Assembly (NCBI GenBank): GCA_964456475.1
Contig: CAYVZI010000002.1
Coordinates: 52,659 to 104,826 of the forward strand
Origin: an uncultured Candidatus Saccharibacteria bacterium
GTDB taxonomy: Bacteria > Patescibacteriota > Minisyncoccia > Phycocordibacterales > UBA9973
DNA: 52,168 bases
Direction of reading: 5' to 3'
The notes under the pieces were generated by a model. It had not been told where the DNA came from, ran no database searches, and worked only from the letters and a program-made list of their open reading frames with translations. Positions 11,481-44,422 of this stretch are shown one piece after another. Every line of letters starts with the position of its first letter. Position 1 is the first letter of the stretch. The position numbers and the translations under genes were made by a program.

Positions 11481-11901
11481 AAAATCTAAGTCCTAAATTC
11501 TAAAACCTAAAGAGAACTGGCTGTTTTTGTTACTATCGCACCAAGAATTTTCATCAATTCGGTATTTTCTTGTACTATAATGTTTTTTTCATTCAAAAAA
11601 TTCCCTTCTTCAATTAAATCAAGCCAAAATATGGACTCTTTGGCTTCCTTTCGACAAATTTTGACCCTCATCAAAAAATCTTTTCTACTCAACGATTCCG
11701 CGGCTTCAATAAAGTTGGCTCCGATTGATGCAGACGATCGAATTAATTGTTTAGAATATTCCAGATTACTTTGAGAGCGCGGAATCAATTTTAAAAAATC
11801 ACGTACTGTTTTTGCAAATACTCTTGTCCTATCTTCTAGTTTATATTGTTTAGGCTCGGTTTGCATTCTTTAGAATTTAGAACTTAGGATTTAGAATTTT
11901 G
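11481..11901 (-). mobile_element. Four-helix-bundle cassette flanked by inverted 7-mer arrays, between pilB and pilC
   Basis: Left aatctaa-gtcctaa-attctaa-aacctaa; right ttagaat-ttagaac-ttaggat-ttagaat; mobility is inferred only. Confidence 0.55.
11507..11866 (-). CDS. Four helix bundle protein (TIGR02436 / 23S rRNA IVS-protein-like)
   Basis: KQLIRSSASIGANFIEA, SRKDFLMRVKICRKEAKESIFWL. Confidence 0.92.
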   Translation of the reverse strand: MQTEPKQYKLEDRTRVFAKTVRDFLKLIPRSQSNLEYSKQLIRSSASIGANFIEAAESLSRKDFLMRVKICRKEAKESIFWLDLIEEGNFLNEKNIIVQENTELMKILGAIVTKTASSL

Positions 11902-11922
11902 AAGTTCTCCGTGTTATTTCCG

Positions 11923-13680
11923 CTACTCGGAAATAACACGGAGAACTTCTTCCGTTGTTGTTTGCCCTTGCACTGCCAAGAAGAATCCATCTTCGATCAT
12001 AGTCATCATTCCCTCCTTCTTTGCCTGTTCTTCGATTTGCGCTTGCGACGAACCCTTCAAAATAAGCTCTTTGATGGTGTTTGAAACTTCAAGCACCTCA
12101 TGGATACCCACGCGGCCTTTATATCCATCTTCTGACTCTTCATTTTTCTTCGCTCGATACAGTGGAATTGTGTCCCAGGTAGCATCATCAGCTACGACTT
12201 TTTCGGCTTTAAGGAACGTGAGTACTCGATCAAGGTCCACAATCTTTCCGATTGAATCAATCTCGGCCTTTGTCGGAGTATACTTTTCTTTTATTGAAGT
12301 AAGTTTACGCACGAGACGTTGAGCGATGATAGTTTTGACTGTCGAGACAATAAGGAACGGTTCGACTCCCATATCAATCATACGGGGAATCGCACCGGCG
12401 GCTGAGTTTGTATGGATTGTCGAAAGCACAAGATGTCCAGTGAGTGATGCATTAACCGCAAGACTTGCCGTCTCGCCATCACGAATTTCCCCGACCATGA
12501 TAATGTCCGGGTCTTGACGAAGTAACGTGCGCAAACCGTTGGCAAATGTGAGTCCTATCTCGGGCTTCACCTGTGTCTGATTGATGCGTGGCATCTGATA
12601 TTCGATTGGATCTTCTACCGTCGAAATATTCACATCTGTGGTATTGAGCAAATCAAGGACAGTATAGAGTGTCGTTGTCTTACCTGACCCGGTCGGTCCA
12701 GCAGCAAGGATCATTCCTGTTTTCTTTTTCATTGCAGTATGAATGCGTTCGAATGCTTCTCCGTGAAAACCAAGTCCTTCGAGTGAGTACCCGTGCGAGT
12801 TCTCGCGGAGTAGACGCATGACGACTTTCTCACCATAGTATGTAGGAAGTGTTGAGACACGAAATGAGACTTTTTCTCCTTCATTACTGATTTTGAAACG
12901 TCCATCTTGTGGTAAACGTTTTTCATCAAGCTTCAAATTGGAAAGTACTTTGATACGAGCAACAATTCCCGGTGCCACATCCTTTGGAAGCGTCATCGCA
13001 TCATGCAAAATACCATCAATACGATATCGCACCACCATCGCATCCTCTTCCGGCTCAATATGAATATCAGAAGTCCCCTGGCTCACTGCATGAGCAATGA
13101 GCGTGTCCACGATTTTGACAATTGGCAAATCTTCAGCAAGTTCCTTGAGATCCTTTTCGCTCTTTTCAGATCCTTCATCATCATTTTCAGTTTGAACAGA
13201 AACAGATTCCTTTGAGATGATAGTGTCGAAGTCGGCTTTCAGACTTTTTTTGTATTGCTGCAATGCACCTTTGATTGAAATCTCATCTGTAAGTACAGGT
13301 ATAATCTTGAGTCCTGTTTTCTTTTTTACGAAATCGATTGTAGGCAAATCATCTACGTCGAGCATTGCCACTTCAAGTGTATTGTCGGTCTTTTTGAATG
13401 CAATAACATTATTTGTGCGAGCAATCGGCTCAGGGATGAGCGAAAGTGTAGCAAAATCGATTTTTTCAGTACCCAAATTTACAAAAGGTATTCCTATGAT
13501 ATACGCCTCAATTCGTTTCAGTTCGCTCATCTTCAACTTTCCAGCAGAGACGAGTGCGCTTCCCAGATTTCCTTTGTTTGATTGTACCTCGGGAGACTGT
13601 TCAGCATTCGCAATATCAGTCGGCGAAACAAGTCCGGACTCTACGATAAACTTTTTTAATTGGGTGGCATCAATTTGCAT
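11923..13680 (-). CDS. pilB: Type IV pilus assembly ATPase PilB (GspE/PulE family)
   Basis: SDIHIEP, RLPQDGR, Walker A GPTGSGKTTT, LRQDPDIIMVGEIRD, STIHTNSA; probable start MQIDATQL at 13680. Confidence 0.96.
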   Translation of the reverse strand: MQIDATQLKKFIVESGLVSPTDIANAEQSPEVQSNKGNLGSALVSAGKLKMSELKRIEAYIIGIPFVNLGTEKIDFATLSLIPEPIARTNNVIAFKKTDNTLEVAMLDVDDLPTIDFVKKKTGLKIIPVLTDEISIKGALQQYKKSLKADFDTIISKESVSVQTENDDEGSEKSEKDLKELAEDLPIVKIVDTLIAHAVSQGTSDIHIEPEEDAMVVRYRIDGILHDAMTLPKDVAPGIVARIKVLSNLKLDEKRLPQDGRFKISNEGEKVSFRVSTLPTYYGEKVVMRLLRENSHGYSLEGLGFHGEAFERIHTAMKKKTGMILAAGPTGSGKTTTLYTVLDLLNTTDVNISTVEDPIEYQMPRINQTQVKPEIGLTFANGLRTLLRQDPDIIMVGEIRDGETASLAVNASLTGHLVLSTIHTNSAAGAIPRMIDMGVEPFLIVSTVKTIIAQRLVRKLTSIKEKYTPTKAEIDSIGKIVDLDRVLTFLKAEKVVADDATWDTIPLYRAKKNEESEDGYKGRVGIHEVLEVSNTIKELILKGSSQAQIEEQAKKEGMMTMIEDGFFLAVQGQTTTEEVLRVISE

Positions 13681-13780
13681 AACTATATACATATAGTATA
13701 TCAACAAAACACAAGAACATGAAAACAAAATTAAAAAAACCTTACACGAATGTGTAAGGTTTTTTACTAACGAACAGAAG

Positions 13781-43053: not shown

Positions 43054-43318
43054 AGTATTAACTAAACTTAAAAAACAATGAAAAAGATCATCTCGCCGCA
43101 CGCATGTGGCAATCCCGAAAAAAACTTTTTTATTAACACTCTCCGTACCGGCGCCGGCACCTCTAACCAGCTGAATACATAAAGCGGCCAATAGGGCGAT
43201 TGGGTATGTGAAAATGATTGTCCAAGCCAGAGTTGCAGGACAAATTTAAAGAGAGCATCCAAATTGGGTGCTCTTTCTTTTTTACGTGCATTTATACTGA
43301 ATACTATATACAAATTTT

Positions 43319-43966
43319 CTATTTTTTCTTAAGTAGTACAACAGCAAAATCGACATCCTTCATGCCAAACGGAGTGTCGTGGTCGATATGACGAATTTCA
43401 AAATCTTTTTCAAATAATTTCGTAATTTCATCGTCAGAGAAGAAATGATAGTGTACACCTTCCTTTTCAAAATCAGCGTTATCACTCTTTTGTGGTTTCC
43501 ACGACAAAAAATTTGGAGAATTTTTTGAGAGGACCACAAGAAAAAAGAATCCACCTTGTTTAAGCACTCGTGTAATTTCAGAAACATATACCGAATAATC
43601 AGCAGGAGTAAGATGTTGAAGCAACCCAATATCAGATATACCATCAAAACTCTGGTCGGCAAGCGGAATATCGAGCGCATCTCCTTGCATAAACCGCAAC
43701 TGCTTCTCAAAACCCCCATCTTTAATCATATTGTTGCCTCGAGCCACGAGTGTAGGATTGTTTTCGAGCCCAATTGCTCGATAGCCAAGATCGGCAAGAT
43801 CAAACAAGAGTCGTCCACGTCCTGCTCCAACGTCGAGAATAAGCGCGCCTTGTGGAAGATAGAGAGCGAGTTCATGAGCCTTGCGTTCAAAAGGAATCGC
43901 AGTCCATGCATCAGTACCAGTTCGATACGCTTGCGCAAAAAAATCATTTTGAGTTTCGTAACTCAT
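43319..43966 (-). CDS. Class I SAM-dependent methyltransferase
   Basis: ILDVGAGRG motif I, GDALDIPLADQSFD, LKQGGFF. Confidence 0.92.
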   Translation of the reverse strand: MSYETQNDFFAQAYRTGTDAWTAIPFERKAHELALYLPQGALILDVGAGRGRLLFDLADLGYRAIGLENNPTLVARGNNMIKDGGFEKQLRFMQGDALDIPLADQSFDGISDIGLLQHLTPADYSVYVSEITRVLKQGGFFFLVVLSKNSPNFLSWKPQKSDNADFEKEGVHYHFFSDDEITKLFEKDFEIRHIDHDTPFGMKDVDFAVVLLKKK

Positions 43967-43974
43967 ATGTTAAT

Positions 43975-44422
43975 TAGTATACAGTATTTAGTATACGGTA
44001 TACAGTATAAACACACAGTTATTTATCGATCGCAGTTTTGTATAGAGCTGAAATAAGTTTATTAACTACTTCTGCTTGTTCTTCAAATAATCTAAATGTA
44101 ACAGTGCTCATAAATCCAAGATCTCGTGAAGCAATACATTGATTTTCGAGTTCTGCGAGAGAAGTCTTTGCCATAGTATAAAAATGTATTTTGTCTTTTG
44201 CTGTAGTTCTACCAAAGCCTTCAGCTATATTTGATGTAATGGAAATAACCGCCCTACGCATTTGGTTTGTTATACCAAAACGCTCGTCAGCTGGAAAATC
44301 CTTTGTAGTTTTATAAATCAAAAGAACAAGCTGATGAGCCTTTTGCCATGCAATTAAGTGGGTAAATTTTTGTATTTCTGAATTTCCCATACTGTATACA
44401 GTATACCGTATACTAAATACTA
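43975..44422 (-). mobile_element. Four-helix-bundle cassette 2 flanked by inverted 7-mer arrays
   Basis: 21-bp perfect inverted match agtatttagtatacggtatac (43983-44003) / gtataccgtatactaaatact (44401-44421); mobility inferred. Confidence 0.6.
44019..44390 (-). CDS. Four helix bundle protein (23S rRNA IVS-protein-like)
   Basis: LIAWQKAH, FPADERFGITNQMRRAVISITSNIAEGFGR, FYTMAKTSLAELENQ. Confidence 0.93.
   Translation of the reverse strand: MGNSEIQKFTHLIAWQKAHQLVLLIYKTTKDFPADERFGITNQMRRAVISITSNIAEGFGRTTAKDKIHFYTMAKTSLAELENQCIASRDLGFMSTVTFRLFEEQAEVVNKLISALYKTAIDK

Follow-up and report, generated by a model that had tools for sequence, protein, structure and literature searches.

Four-helix-bundle protein genes between inverted heptamer arrays in a Patescibacteria contig: cassettes built like rRNA intervening sequences

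Two small genes and their heptamer arms

The stretch of DNA analysed here (52,168 nucleotides of contig CAYVZI010000002.1, positions 52,659 to 104,826, from an uncultured Candidatus Saccharibacteria bacterium; hereafter the window) has a G+C content of 42.8% and contains two small genes of the four-helix-bundle (4HB) family, whose members are also named after the intervening sequences (IVSs) of 23S rRNA. These genes, 4HB#1 and 4HB#2, each lie between two inverted arrays of 7-nt repeats that reach their start and stop codons. The open reading frame (ORF) with its two arms is referred to below as a cassette. The features that make up the two cassettes and their surroundings are:

10262–11476, minus strand: pilC (T2SSF; PF00482, E 3.4e-56), downstream of cassette 1
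11480–11511, minus strand: 3′ arm of cassette 1, UUUAGnn units, overlapping the UAG stop codon
11507–11866, minus strand: 4HB#1 gene, 119 aa, 2RLD subfamily
11867–11906, minus strand: 5′ arm of cassette 1, sense strand UUCUAAA UCCUAAG UUCUAAA UUCUAAAGA, directly followed by AUG
11901–11949, minus strand: stop-codon hairpin, 22 bp, perfect; its 5′ arm is formed by the last pilB codons and the pilB stop codon lies in the loop
11923–14232, minus strand: pilB (T2SSE ATPase; PF00437, E 1.6e-124), upstream of cassette 1
43319–43966, minus strand: gene for a methyltransferase dependent on S-adenosylmethionine, downstream of cassette 2
43972–44016, minus strand: 3′ arm of cassette 2
44019–44390, minus strand: 4HB#2 gene, 123 aa, 2GSC (XCC0516) subfamily
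44389–44425, minus strand: 5′ arm of cassette 2, GUAU-N3 units, with the AUG in phase with the array
44420–45478, minus strand: gene for an Xer-like tyrosine recombinase (Phage_integrase), upstream of cassette 2

Profile searches placed both proteins in the PF05635 / TIGR02436 family (4HB; 23S rRNA IVS protein), with 51.4 and 68.4 bits for 4HB#1 and 116.7 and 112.2 bits for 4HB#2 (cut-offs 33.8 and 24, respectively); BLASTP detected no similarity between the two. Both translations contain RxxxSxxxNxxE, which is part of the family motif GxxRxxxSxxxNxxE (PMC3936711), at R43-S47-N51-E54 in 4HB#1 and at R46-S50-N54-E57 in 4HB#2; residues S50, N54 and E57 of the latter are invariant in alignment A1. 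The proteins are basic, the predicted isoelectric points being in the range 9.1–9.4 (9.3 for 4HB#1, 9.1 for 4HB#2). The PDB relative closest to 4HB#1 is 2RLD, and that closest to the 4HB#2 family is 2GSC (XCC0516). Each of these entries contains five chains, and XCC0516 is a homopentameric toroid (PMC4990558); from these solved relatives only, we infer a homopentameric ring for 4HB#1 and 4HB#2.

At the 5′ side of cassette 1, TRF reported a period of 7 with 5.0 copies of TTTAGAA (11869–11903). At the 3′ side, the UAG stop codon lies inside a UUUAGGU unit, followed by the array UUUAGAA UUUAGGA CUUAGAU, which leaves 3–8 nt to the pilC AUG, according to the point taken as the end of its last unit. 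The arms form an inverted pair (I16) of 25 nt, 88% complementary, and the whole of cassette 1 is on the minus strand, as are pilB and pilC. The relatives of this PilC bear the names Nomurabacteria, Pacebacteria or Paceibacterota, which puts the source of the window among the Patescibacteria. The inverted pair of cassette 2 (43972–44008 / 44389–44425) extends over 37 nt with 81% complementarity, and contains a 27-nt core with 96%. In the minimum-energy folds the arrays made up the closing stem of both cassettes (z −4.96 and −4.85). Both therefore have terminal inverted repeats forming a long stem with the 4HB ORF in the loop, and both carry tandem heptamers directly 5′ of the ORF start, as in Coxiella-type IVSs. 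Neither is inserted in helix 25 or 45 of a 23S rRNA; they lie between protein-coding genes, and an Rfam scan of the window returned four tRNAs only, with no RNA family at any array. An earlier note, made from the letters of this DNA, had described both 4HB genes as bracketed by inverted 7-nt arrays abutting or overlapping their start and stop codons, had assigned the two cassettes different heptamers, and had placed each inside a co-oriented gene pair (pilB-pilC and xer-methyltransferase). This description is accurate: the repeats touch the codons in both cassettes, the units are of the CTAA type in cassette 1 and of the GUAU-N3 type in cassette 2, and the four neighbours were identified (PF00437, PF00482, Xer-like recombinase, methyltransferase). 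The true start of the Xer-like gene is probably ∼43 codons further in, since the ortholog in locus L170 is 309 aa long.

The stop-codon hairpin at the end of pilB (inverted repeat I15, 100% complementary; −37.9 kcal/mol, z −11.4) is not followed by a T-rich run. At 51110–51140 the last codons of a dksA-like gene also form a perfect stop-codon hairpin, of 14 bp, and a T-rich run does follow it, giving it the appearance of a terminator. Small hairpins of the stop-codon type precede the cassettes found between atpG and atpD in three other loci (L109, L118 and L130).

Arrays across the protein family, and full and empty junctions

A genome collection searched with an alignment of 4HB#2 relatives yielded 80 loci, almost all from Patescibacteria. 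By eye, nearly every 4HB gene in them has an array running up to its ATG and the reverse complement of that array starting from its stop codon. Periodicity was scored in 79 of the 4HB loci, and in 303 control ORFs from the same loci, as at least 16/21 matches at period 7. Upstream flanks passed this test for 52% of the 4HB genes and 8% of the controls, and downstream flanks for 52% and 11%; at periods other than 7, only 0–2% passed in either group. The 7-nt periodicity around TIGR02436/PF05635 genes that the earlier note had put forward as a check is therefore strongly enriched (52% versus 8–11% of flanks), and it was seen in eight phyla (see below). An inverted-match score of at least 12 was reached by 49% of the 4HB genes compared with 2.6% of the controls. 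The arms were also specific for each other: the median duplex energy was −30.3 kcal/mol with an arm's own partner and −16.7 with a swapped one. An ungapped stem was present in 63 of 81 cassettes (median 24 bp, 91% complementarity). Most arrays contain ∼4 units, end 0–5 nt from the ATG and begin again 0–8 nt past the stop codon. In the 4HB#2 subfamily the upstream arm is poor in C (5%) and the downstream arm poor in G (5%). The upstream neighbour has the orientation of the 4HB gene in 61 of 74 cases and the downstream neighbour in 58 of 74, with median gaps of 35 and 38 nt, which is the width of one array. As read from these sequence contexts, the element fills a short spacer between co-oriented genes.

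The type of heptamer was compared with the relationship between the proteins. The relatives of 4HB#1 at 56–62% identity, found in Moranbacteria (two 4HB genes in a por operon), an unclassified bacterium and Phycisphaerae, all have a 5′ arm of CTAAAnn units and a 3′ arm of TTTAGnn units, a polarity opposite to that of the 4HB#2 family; a Bernardetia relative 38% identical to 4HB#1 has CTAA units as well. Arrays of CTAAAnn units accompany the 4HB#1 subfamily in three phyla. Within the 4HB#2 family, protein identity and heptamer similarity were correlated (Mantel rho 0.31; none of 999 permutations gave a higher value), and heptamers agreed at six or more of their seven positions in 55% of the protein pairs at least 65% identical, compared with 6% of those at 45–55% identity. 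Judged by these comparisons, heptamer type follows protein subfamily. Such coupling is consistent with co-inheritance of arms and ORF; it is also what recognition of the repeat by the protein predicts, although it is no proof of it.

The junctions occupied by the cassettes were then compared between relatives. In the window's species, an identical cassette lies between pilB and pilC on eight independent contigs, and none of the DNA contigs from four metagenomes lacked cassette 1 through a deletion joint; cassette 1 is therefore fixed within the species. In contrast to this full site, in locus L187, whose PilC is 92% identical, pilB ends in ...RVISE* and is followed by a 29-nt spacer and pilC, without arrays and without the 22-bp hairpin. 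The gap is likewise empty and 2–10 nt long in relatives at 67–68% identity, and measures 5–77 nt in more distant Paceibacteria; in all, the junction is empty in relatives spanning 37–68% identity. The same junction contains 4HB#2-type cassettes, of unrelated 4HB lineages, in three other loci (L177, with a protein 69% identical to 4HB#2, L150 and L124), and arrays only in two (L018, octamers, and L028). The comparison of pilB-pilC junctions suggested in the earlier note thus found the site full in the window's species and empty at 92% PilC identity.

Similar comparisons could be made for cassette 2. A 4HB#2 relative at 77% identity occupies the same xer-methyltransferase site, one at 71% lies in a nearby syntenic region, and one at 68% lies between a dksA-like gene and comM. 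This dksA-comM spacer is empty in the window and full in L174, and by eye the similarity between cassette 2 of the window and that of L174 stops at the outer ends of the arrays. As regards integron gene cassettes, which have an attC site on the 3′ side of the ORF and whose arrays neighbour an IntI integrase, a tyrosine recombinase gene adjoins cassette 2 only, and in relatives it belongs to a conserved housekeeping neighbourhood (S15, xer). A clean pair of full and empty alleles was found in Picosynechococcus, in which a cassette is present between cmr2 and cmr3 in strain PCC 7003 whereas PCC 7002 has a 12-nt spacer, the flanks being 96% identical. The PCC 7003 cassette replaces the last few cmr2 codons plus the spacer, and comparison with PCC 7002 reveals no target duplication at the junction. 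True empty alleles have no arrays at all, and the 4HB genes are not fixed and syntenic across the clade. On this sequence evidence, the arms are part of the element and accompany its ORF, and the element is gained and lost as a unit. RNase III mutants of PCC 7002 have been reported to show altered cmr gene expression (PMC5829567); a link to RNase III by this route was discarded as irrelevant because PCC 7002 lacks the cassette.

In the records read, the same cassette anatomy was found in eight phyla, Patescibacteria and seven others, and also in a true 23S rRNA IVS. Apart from Patescibacteria and that IVS, the records were:

Cyanobacteriota: Aulosira, Nostoc punctiforme and Geminocystis
Cyanobacteriota: Picosynechococcus, between cmr2 and cmr3
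Cyanobacteriota: Planktothrix
Bacteroidota: Riemerella
Bacteroidota: Bernardetia
Gemmatimonadota: Gemmatirosa
Chloroflexota: Chlorohelix, in the order helicase / 4HB / N6-methylase
Bacillota: Monoglobus, in the order hsdS / 4HB / hsdR
Planctomycetota: a Phycisphaerae genome with two 4HB genes in a leu operon, the heptamer arms being clear at one of them

The IVS came from a match on an Azospirillum lipoferum plasmid (L185), where the surrounding sequence proved to be a 23S rRNA gene (2537 bits with the Rfam LSU model). Of the classical helix-45 kind, this IVS has a 5′ arm of GAGGACG/GATGACA units and a 3′ arm that is their complement. The operons that harbour cassettes (pil, atp, por, leu, cmr, hsd) are unrelated and share no functional theme. 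Carriage by phages was considered and rejected, no 4HB relatives being found in viral contigs or GenBank phages.

Arrays without a 4HB gene

Period 7 also stands out in the window as a whole: 49 positions had at least 17/21 matches at this period, compared with 0–4 at the other periods from 4 to 12. Arrays of the CTAA-N3 type number nine, against ∼0.1 expected, and the 13-mer TCTAAGTCCTAAA occurs exactly at 6736, 11485 and 50689 (expected 0.08; three copies were reached in none of 100 shuffles). The arrays without an ORF are mostly of the cassette-1 type, two being of the cassette-2 type:

6723–6793, minus strand: inverted CTAA/TTAG pair between a 589/602-aa ORF and tpiA; z −3.1
8524–8553 / 8635–8664, minus strand: inverted pair, GGUUUUU/GGUGUAA versus ACCAAAC, enclosing a loop of ∼80 nt and situated in the 589-aa ORF's leader; z −3.5
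17272–17303, plus strand: single CUAnnCC array ending at the nusA AUG, without a Shine-Dalgarno sequence
18556–18601, plus strand: single CUAAUUC/UUAAUUA array ending 7 nt before the AUG of ppa (pyrophosphatase); unpaired, z 0.2
40364–40402, plus strand: CTAAACC array inside the ORF of a CCA-adding enzyme, in frame, part of an insert of ∼35 aa
43294–43311, minus strand: a further array of GUAU-N3 units, immediately downstream of the methyltransferase gene and followed by an AUG whose frame has stop codons
45384–45401, minus strand: a further array of GUAU-N3 units, lying in what is probably the 5′ leader of the Xer-like gene
45987–46050, plus strand: inverted pair whose CCUAAnn arm ends 5 nt before the AUG of an NYN-domain gene; z −2.9
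50683–50745, plus strand: inverted CTAA/TTAG pair before the dksA-like gene, followed by a U run; z −1.4

The earlier note had listed ORF-less arrays at 6719–6800 and 50678–50750, which share TCTAAGTCCTAAA, and an inverted pair at 45987–46050. All three are real; the inverted pair at 8524–8664, the nusA, ppa and CCA-enzyme arrays and the two extra GUAU/GTAT-type arrays are additions to its list. Its reading of the ORF-less arrays as empty counterparts of the cassettes did not survive: they are array hairpins at separate loci, while true empty alleles are free of arrays. Its broader proposal of mRNA-level, IVS-like mobile cassettes is partly supported: the existence of full and empty alleles (L187; PCC 7003/7002) and the IVS anatomy (L185) hold good, excision from the mRNA is a prediction, and no mechanism of mobility is visible. 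The hairpin at 6723–6793 is absent upstream of tpiA in relatives, and is hence lineage-specific. Like nusA, ppa has no Shine-Dalgarno sequence at its array. A consensus-like promoter (TTGACA, 17 nt, TATACT) is present at 17143–17171, ∼130 nt upstream of nusA, which would place the nusA array inside the 5′ leader of the transcript.

Across the 4HB loci, 148 arrays in 563 kb adjoin no 4HB gene. ORF-less arrays matched the arms of the 4HB cassette of their own locus in 24% of cases, compared with 5.6% for arms from other loci.

Several further observations concern repeats in the window or in these loci. In the gene for the CCA-adding enzyme (40017–41645), the insert (∼40290–40400) lies between the FGTVGV and EVTPYR motifs and consists of near-palindromic 14-mers (GTTACACATGTAAC, GTTTCACGTGAAAC, TTTCACATGAAAC) followed by the CTAAACC array; two of the 14-mers recur in the N-terminal extension of the gene (40041–40054 and 40083–40096). 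Palindromic elements of ∼53 nt, of two types and in four copies (25332–25385, 26787–26839, 27863–27916 and 28300–28352), each form a hairpin (pairs I1, I2, I13, I17 and I18) and bear no relation to the heptamer arrays. A GC-rich inverted-repeat element (GGATCCCGGATCAAGTCCGGGAC-like) is found in intergenic DNA at 42911–42975 and 51186–51210; one of these two sites is the empty dksA-comM spacer. Array units of 8 nt were seen at 9939–9983 in L018, in L180 and in L184 (TAAAGTTA, GGAGATAA, GGAGGGCA). Arrays can be amplified, as in L156, in which 3767–3982 comprises five tandem 47-nt units each with a 5′ arm, and in L091, with ∼15 copies of CATAACG at 5068–5178. In L037, a pil locus from outside the candidate phyla radiation (CPR), a gene between pilB and pilC is flanked by GATTGCG-type heptamers (7285–7415 and 8579–8625); these are direct rather than inverted, with ∼18 copies on one side, and no 4HB gene is visible in the locus. 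In a Phycisphaerae leu operon (L194), a 119-aa PDDEXK_3 gene just after leuD (10993–11352) has direct CACGGAT(T) repeats on both sides with a period of ∼10–11 nt, and may represent a second kind of small passenger cassette.

Interpretation and comparison with known systems

The reading we favour, at a probability of roughly 60%, is that each 4HB gene is the cargo of a compact IVS-like element of ∼450 nt, the arms of which loop the ORF out of the transcript. Such an element would consist of an inverted array of ∼4–5 heptamers, a 4HB ORF of ∼120 aa and the reverse-complement array, both arrays reaching the start and stop codons. On the precedent of rRNA, the two arms would pair in the polycistronic transcript to form a double-stranded RNA stem of ∼24–35 bp, which would loop the ORF out and bring the upstream stop codon and the downstream start codon close together again. 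By analogy with the duplexes cut in rRNA IVSs, the stem would be a likely substrate for RNase III. Such behaviour would account for the tolerance of the element within operons and rRNA. More speculatively, the basic, putatively pentameric protein could recognise its own array in a TRAP-like manner, with one heptamer per subunit, reading ∼4–5 spaced cores (by eye, 4 conserved plus 3 variable nt in each unit). Since the array abuts the AUG, this might control translation of the 4HB gene itself, and the protein might also act at the ORF-less arrays of the same type before nusA, ppa, tpiA, the dksA-like gene and the NYN gene. A generalisation can be offered tentatively, and may well prove too broad: PF05635/TIGR02436 proteins would be sequence-specific heptamer-binding rings which, together with inverted arrays, form a very widespread class of compact elements in rRNA and mRNA hairpin loops and spacers; with their ORF-less derivatives, these elements would account for much of the excess of heptamer repeats in the intergenic DNA of bacteria.

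Several observations weigh against this picture of an element acting in the transcript. The stem mismatches comprise 24 G·U, 40 A·C and 99 transversions, with no preference for G·U, so the pairing of the arms could matter at the DNA level; a claim of RNA-specific covariation was dropped in view of this wobble test. The arms are in general no better conserved than the ORF, with a mean identity over their last and first 30 nt of 0.63 and 0.61, compared with 0.67 for the ORF; that they are better conserved had been considered as a general claim and was rejected, being true of the GTATAC clade only (window versus L090: U30 1.00, ORF 0.74). The spacing is not strictly 7 nt, octamers being found in the cassettes of L180 and L184 and in the solo arrays of L018, and the idea of a strict 7-nt ruler was abandoned on account of these variants. 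ORF-less arrays of several types occur within one locus, a poor match for a single regulator; the idea that each genome has one regulon was rejected because of this mixture. Neither nuclease nor recombinase motifs were seen, nor were target duplications or near-identical copies at two sites of one genome. Coverage at the RNA level consists of a few metatranscriptome contigs, too sparse to reveal processing; one covers the 5′ end of pilC, the 3′ arm and the 3′ end of the 4HB gene. Finally, the S23p protein of Coxiella is apparently not translated in vivo (PMC4990558).

The lack of wobble bias on the sense strand would suit an element that acts as DNA. The arms would then be terminal inverted repeats forming single-stranded DNA hairpins or cruciforms during recombination or transposition, the ORF-less pairs would be non-autonomous copies, comparable to REPINs beside their RAYT gene or MITEs beside their transposon, and the 4HB protein would be a mobilising or targeting factor. 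The full and empty alleles agree with this, as do the 13-mer common to the ORF-less pairs and a cassette arm, the higher match of ORF-less arrays to resident cassette arms than to those of other loci, and the position of the 4HB gene between inverted copies of a dispersed repeat, as in the case of RAYT genes. Cassette 2 moreover adjoins an Xer-like recombinase gene; most cassettes, however, are without a recombinase gene in their vicinity. No catalytic motif is known in the 4HB family, the PCC 7003/7002 junction reveals no target-site duplication, and no single locus examined contains a near-identical pair of cassettes. Arms whose placement is set by start and stop codons, in cassettes co-oriented with their neighbours, point to the logic of a transcript, and the same arms in rRNA are a proven RNase III substrate (PMC4990558). 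We consider a DNA-level element unlikely.

A host regulator is suggested instead by the cassette-1-type arrays whose ends lie at or close to the start codons of nusA, ppa and the NYN gene. The 4HB protein would be an RNA-binding regulator of translation, the arrays would mark its regulon, the inverted copy would serve as an anti-array or attenuator, and presence and absence would reflect gene turnover. The number of CTAA-N3 arrays in the window is in line with this, as are the start-codon TAACTGA arrays of Beggiatoaceae, Cyanobacteria and Bacteroidetes, for which no binding protein is known (PMC4679880), and locus L191, in which a second CTAA array after the 3′ arm makes an alternative pairing possible. 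However, the same cassette occurs in 23S rRNA, where a regulon makes no sense, the host operons lack a common function, and many array types coexist per locus. This explanation appears improbable. Coincidence, by which arrays would be generic slippage products of AT-rich intergenic DNA sharing spacers with 4HB genes by chance, is already disfavoured and can be given very little weight: among long simple repeats, heptamers are the commonest class in many bacteria (Mrazek 2007, as relayed in PMC4679880), many arrays adjoin no 4HB gene and control genes still show 8–11% of period-7 flanks, but the enrichment at 4HB genes is five- to six-fold, inverted pairing is ∼19-fold commoner, the pairing of arms is specific to their own partner, arrays are missing from empty alleles, and phyla that differ widely in base composition keep the same arm type with the same subfamily.

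Through these cassettes the 4HB family gains a defined genetic setting, a predicted cognate nucleic-acid motif and a testable hypothesis. To our knowledge, no function has been established for this family (S23p / IVS protein), which has very many members and two crystal structures. Where 4HB genes are found in cas, restriction-modification, por, leu, atp and pil operons, they are probably passengers rather than components of these systems. The arrays may also break metagenome assemblies, since 4HB proteins are often on short contigs (many on contigs of <2 kb), the contig of L009 ends ∼40 nt past 4HB#2, and in L113 an array (2673–2749) abuts a run of N. Strains PCC 7003, with the cassette, and PCC 7002, without it, are both cultivable and constitute a natural experiment.

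Among known systems, REPINs and their RAYT genes share with the cassettes a small gene between inverted short repeats, the repeat being also dispersed as intergenic hairpin doublets. They differ in that RAYT is a Y1 transposase whose chemistry is known, with REPs that are near-identical within a genome, whereas the 4HB protein lacks a catalytic motif and has arrays that are periodic and diverse; the central gene of the cassettes matches PF05635 only, and not a Y1 (IS200/IS605-like) transposase. The Avd protein of diversity-generating retroelements is likewise a four-helix bundle forming a basic pentamer. The similarity of 4HB#2 to Avd profiles is weak (PF22296, E 1e-4; NF033474, E 1.4e-5) and falls below the cut-offs (23.1 versus 40 and 25.3 versus 80, respectively), and neither 4HB gene of the window was seen to adjoin a reverse transcriptase or a template/variable repeat. 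TRAP serves as a working analogy only: a ring-shaped oligomer that reads evenly spaced short cores, with variable spacers between them, near a start codon, set against an alternative RNA structure, but with an unrelated fold.

Two kinds of heptamer repeat described previously are closer to the arrays. TAACTGA arrays consist of 2–6 direct units that end a few nucleotides before a start codon, usually without a Shine-Dalgarno sequence (MacGregor 2015, PMC4679880), and the nusA and ppa arrays of the window resemble them. Unlike in the window, each of those genomes is dominated by a single heptamer and inverted pairs are seldom found; S1, Csp and CsrA were proposed as the associated protein, none having been identified (PMC4679880). 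The GGGAATC and GGGGATT heptamers of Xanthomonas and Nostoc are intergenic, 0–50 bp from start or stop codons (Rehm et al. 2015, PMC4692102), and Xanthomonas genomes have 70–75 convergent pairs each that are capable of forming stem-loops (PMC4692102). They were read in that paper as G-quadruplex elements, and the link with 4HB genes was not drawn; the 4HB gene of Planktothrix has flanks of exactly this type (CCCCAAT/ATTGGGG). Genes for 23S_rRNA_IVP proteins have been reported as ORFs in rRNA insertions of CPR bacteria (PMC11270868), and also wedged between cas genes, where they were taken as Cas-associated (PMC3936711). In the openly accessible full-text literature, we found no paper joining IVSs, start-codon heptamers and inverted heptamer pairs, and no statement that 4HB genes generally lie within inverted heptamers or that such cassettes occur in mRNA spacers. 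The cassettes thus bring together three literatures: those on rRNA intervening sequences, on start-codon heptamer arrays and on inverted “G-quadruplex” heptamers.

The closest likeness is to the ORF-bearing 23S IVSs of Coxiella burnetii, Leptospira and Brucella, whose cargo is from the same protein family as that of the window cassettes. [quoted passage not shown] Excision by RNase III is proven for rRNA IVSs, while the window cassettes are known from their sequence alone. The terminal stem, the ORF in its loop and the heptamers before the ATG are the same in both, and the host site differs, being a spacer between protein-coding genes in the window rather than helix 25 or 45. In their sequence anatomy, therefore, the window cassettes have the same build as ORF-bearing rRNA IVSs, at a different host site.

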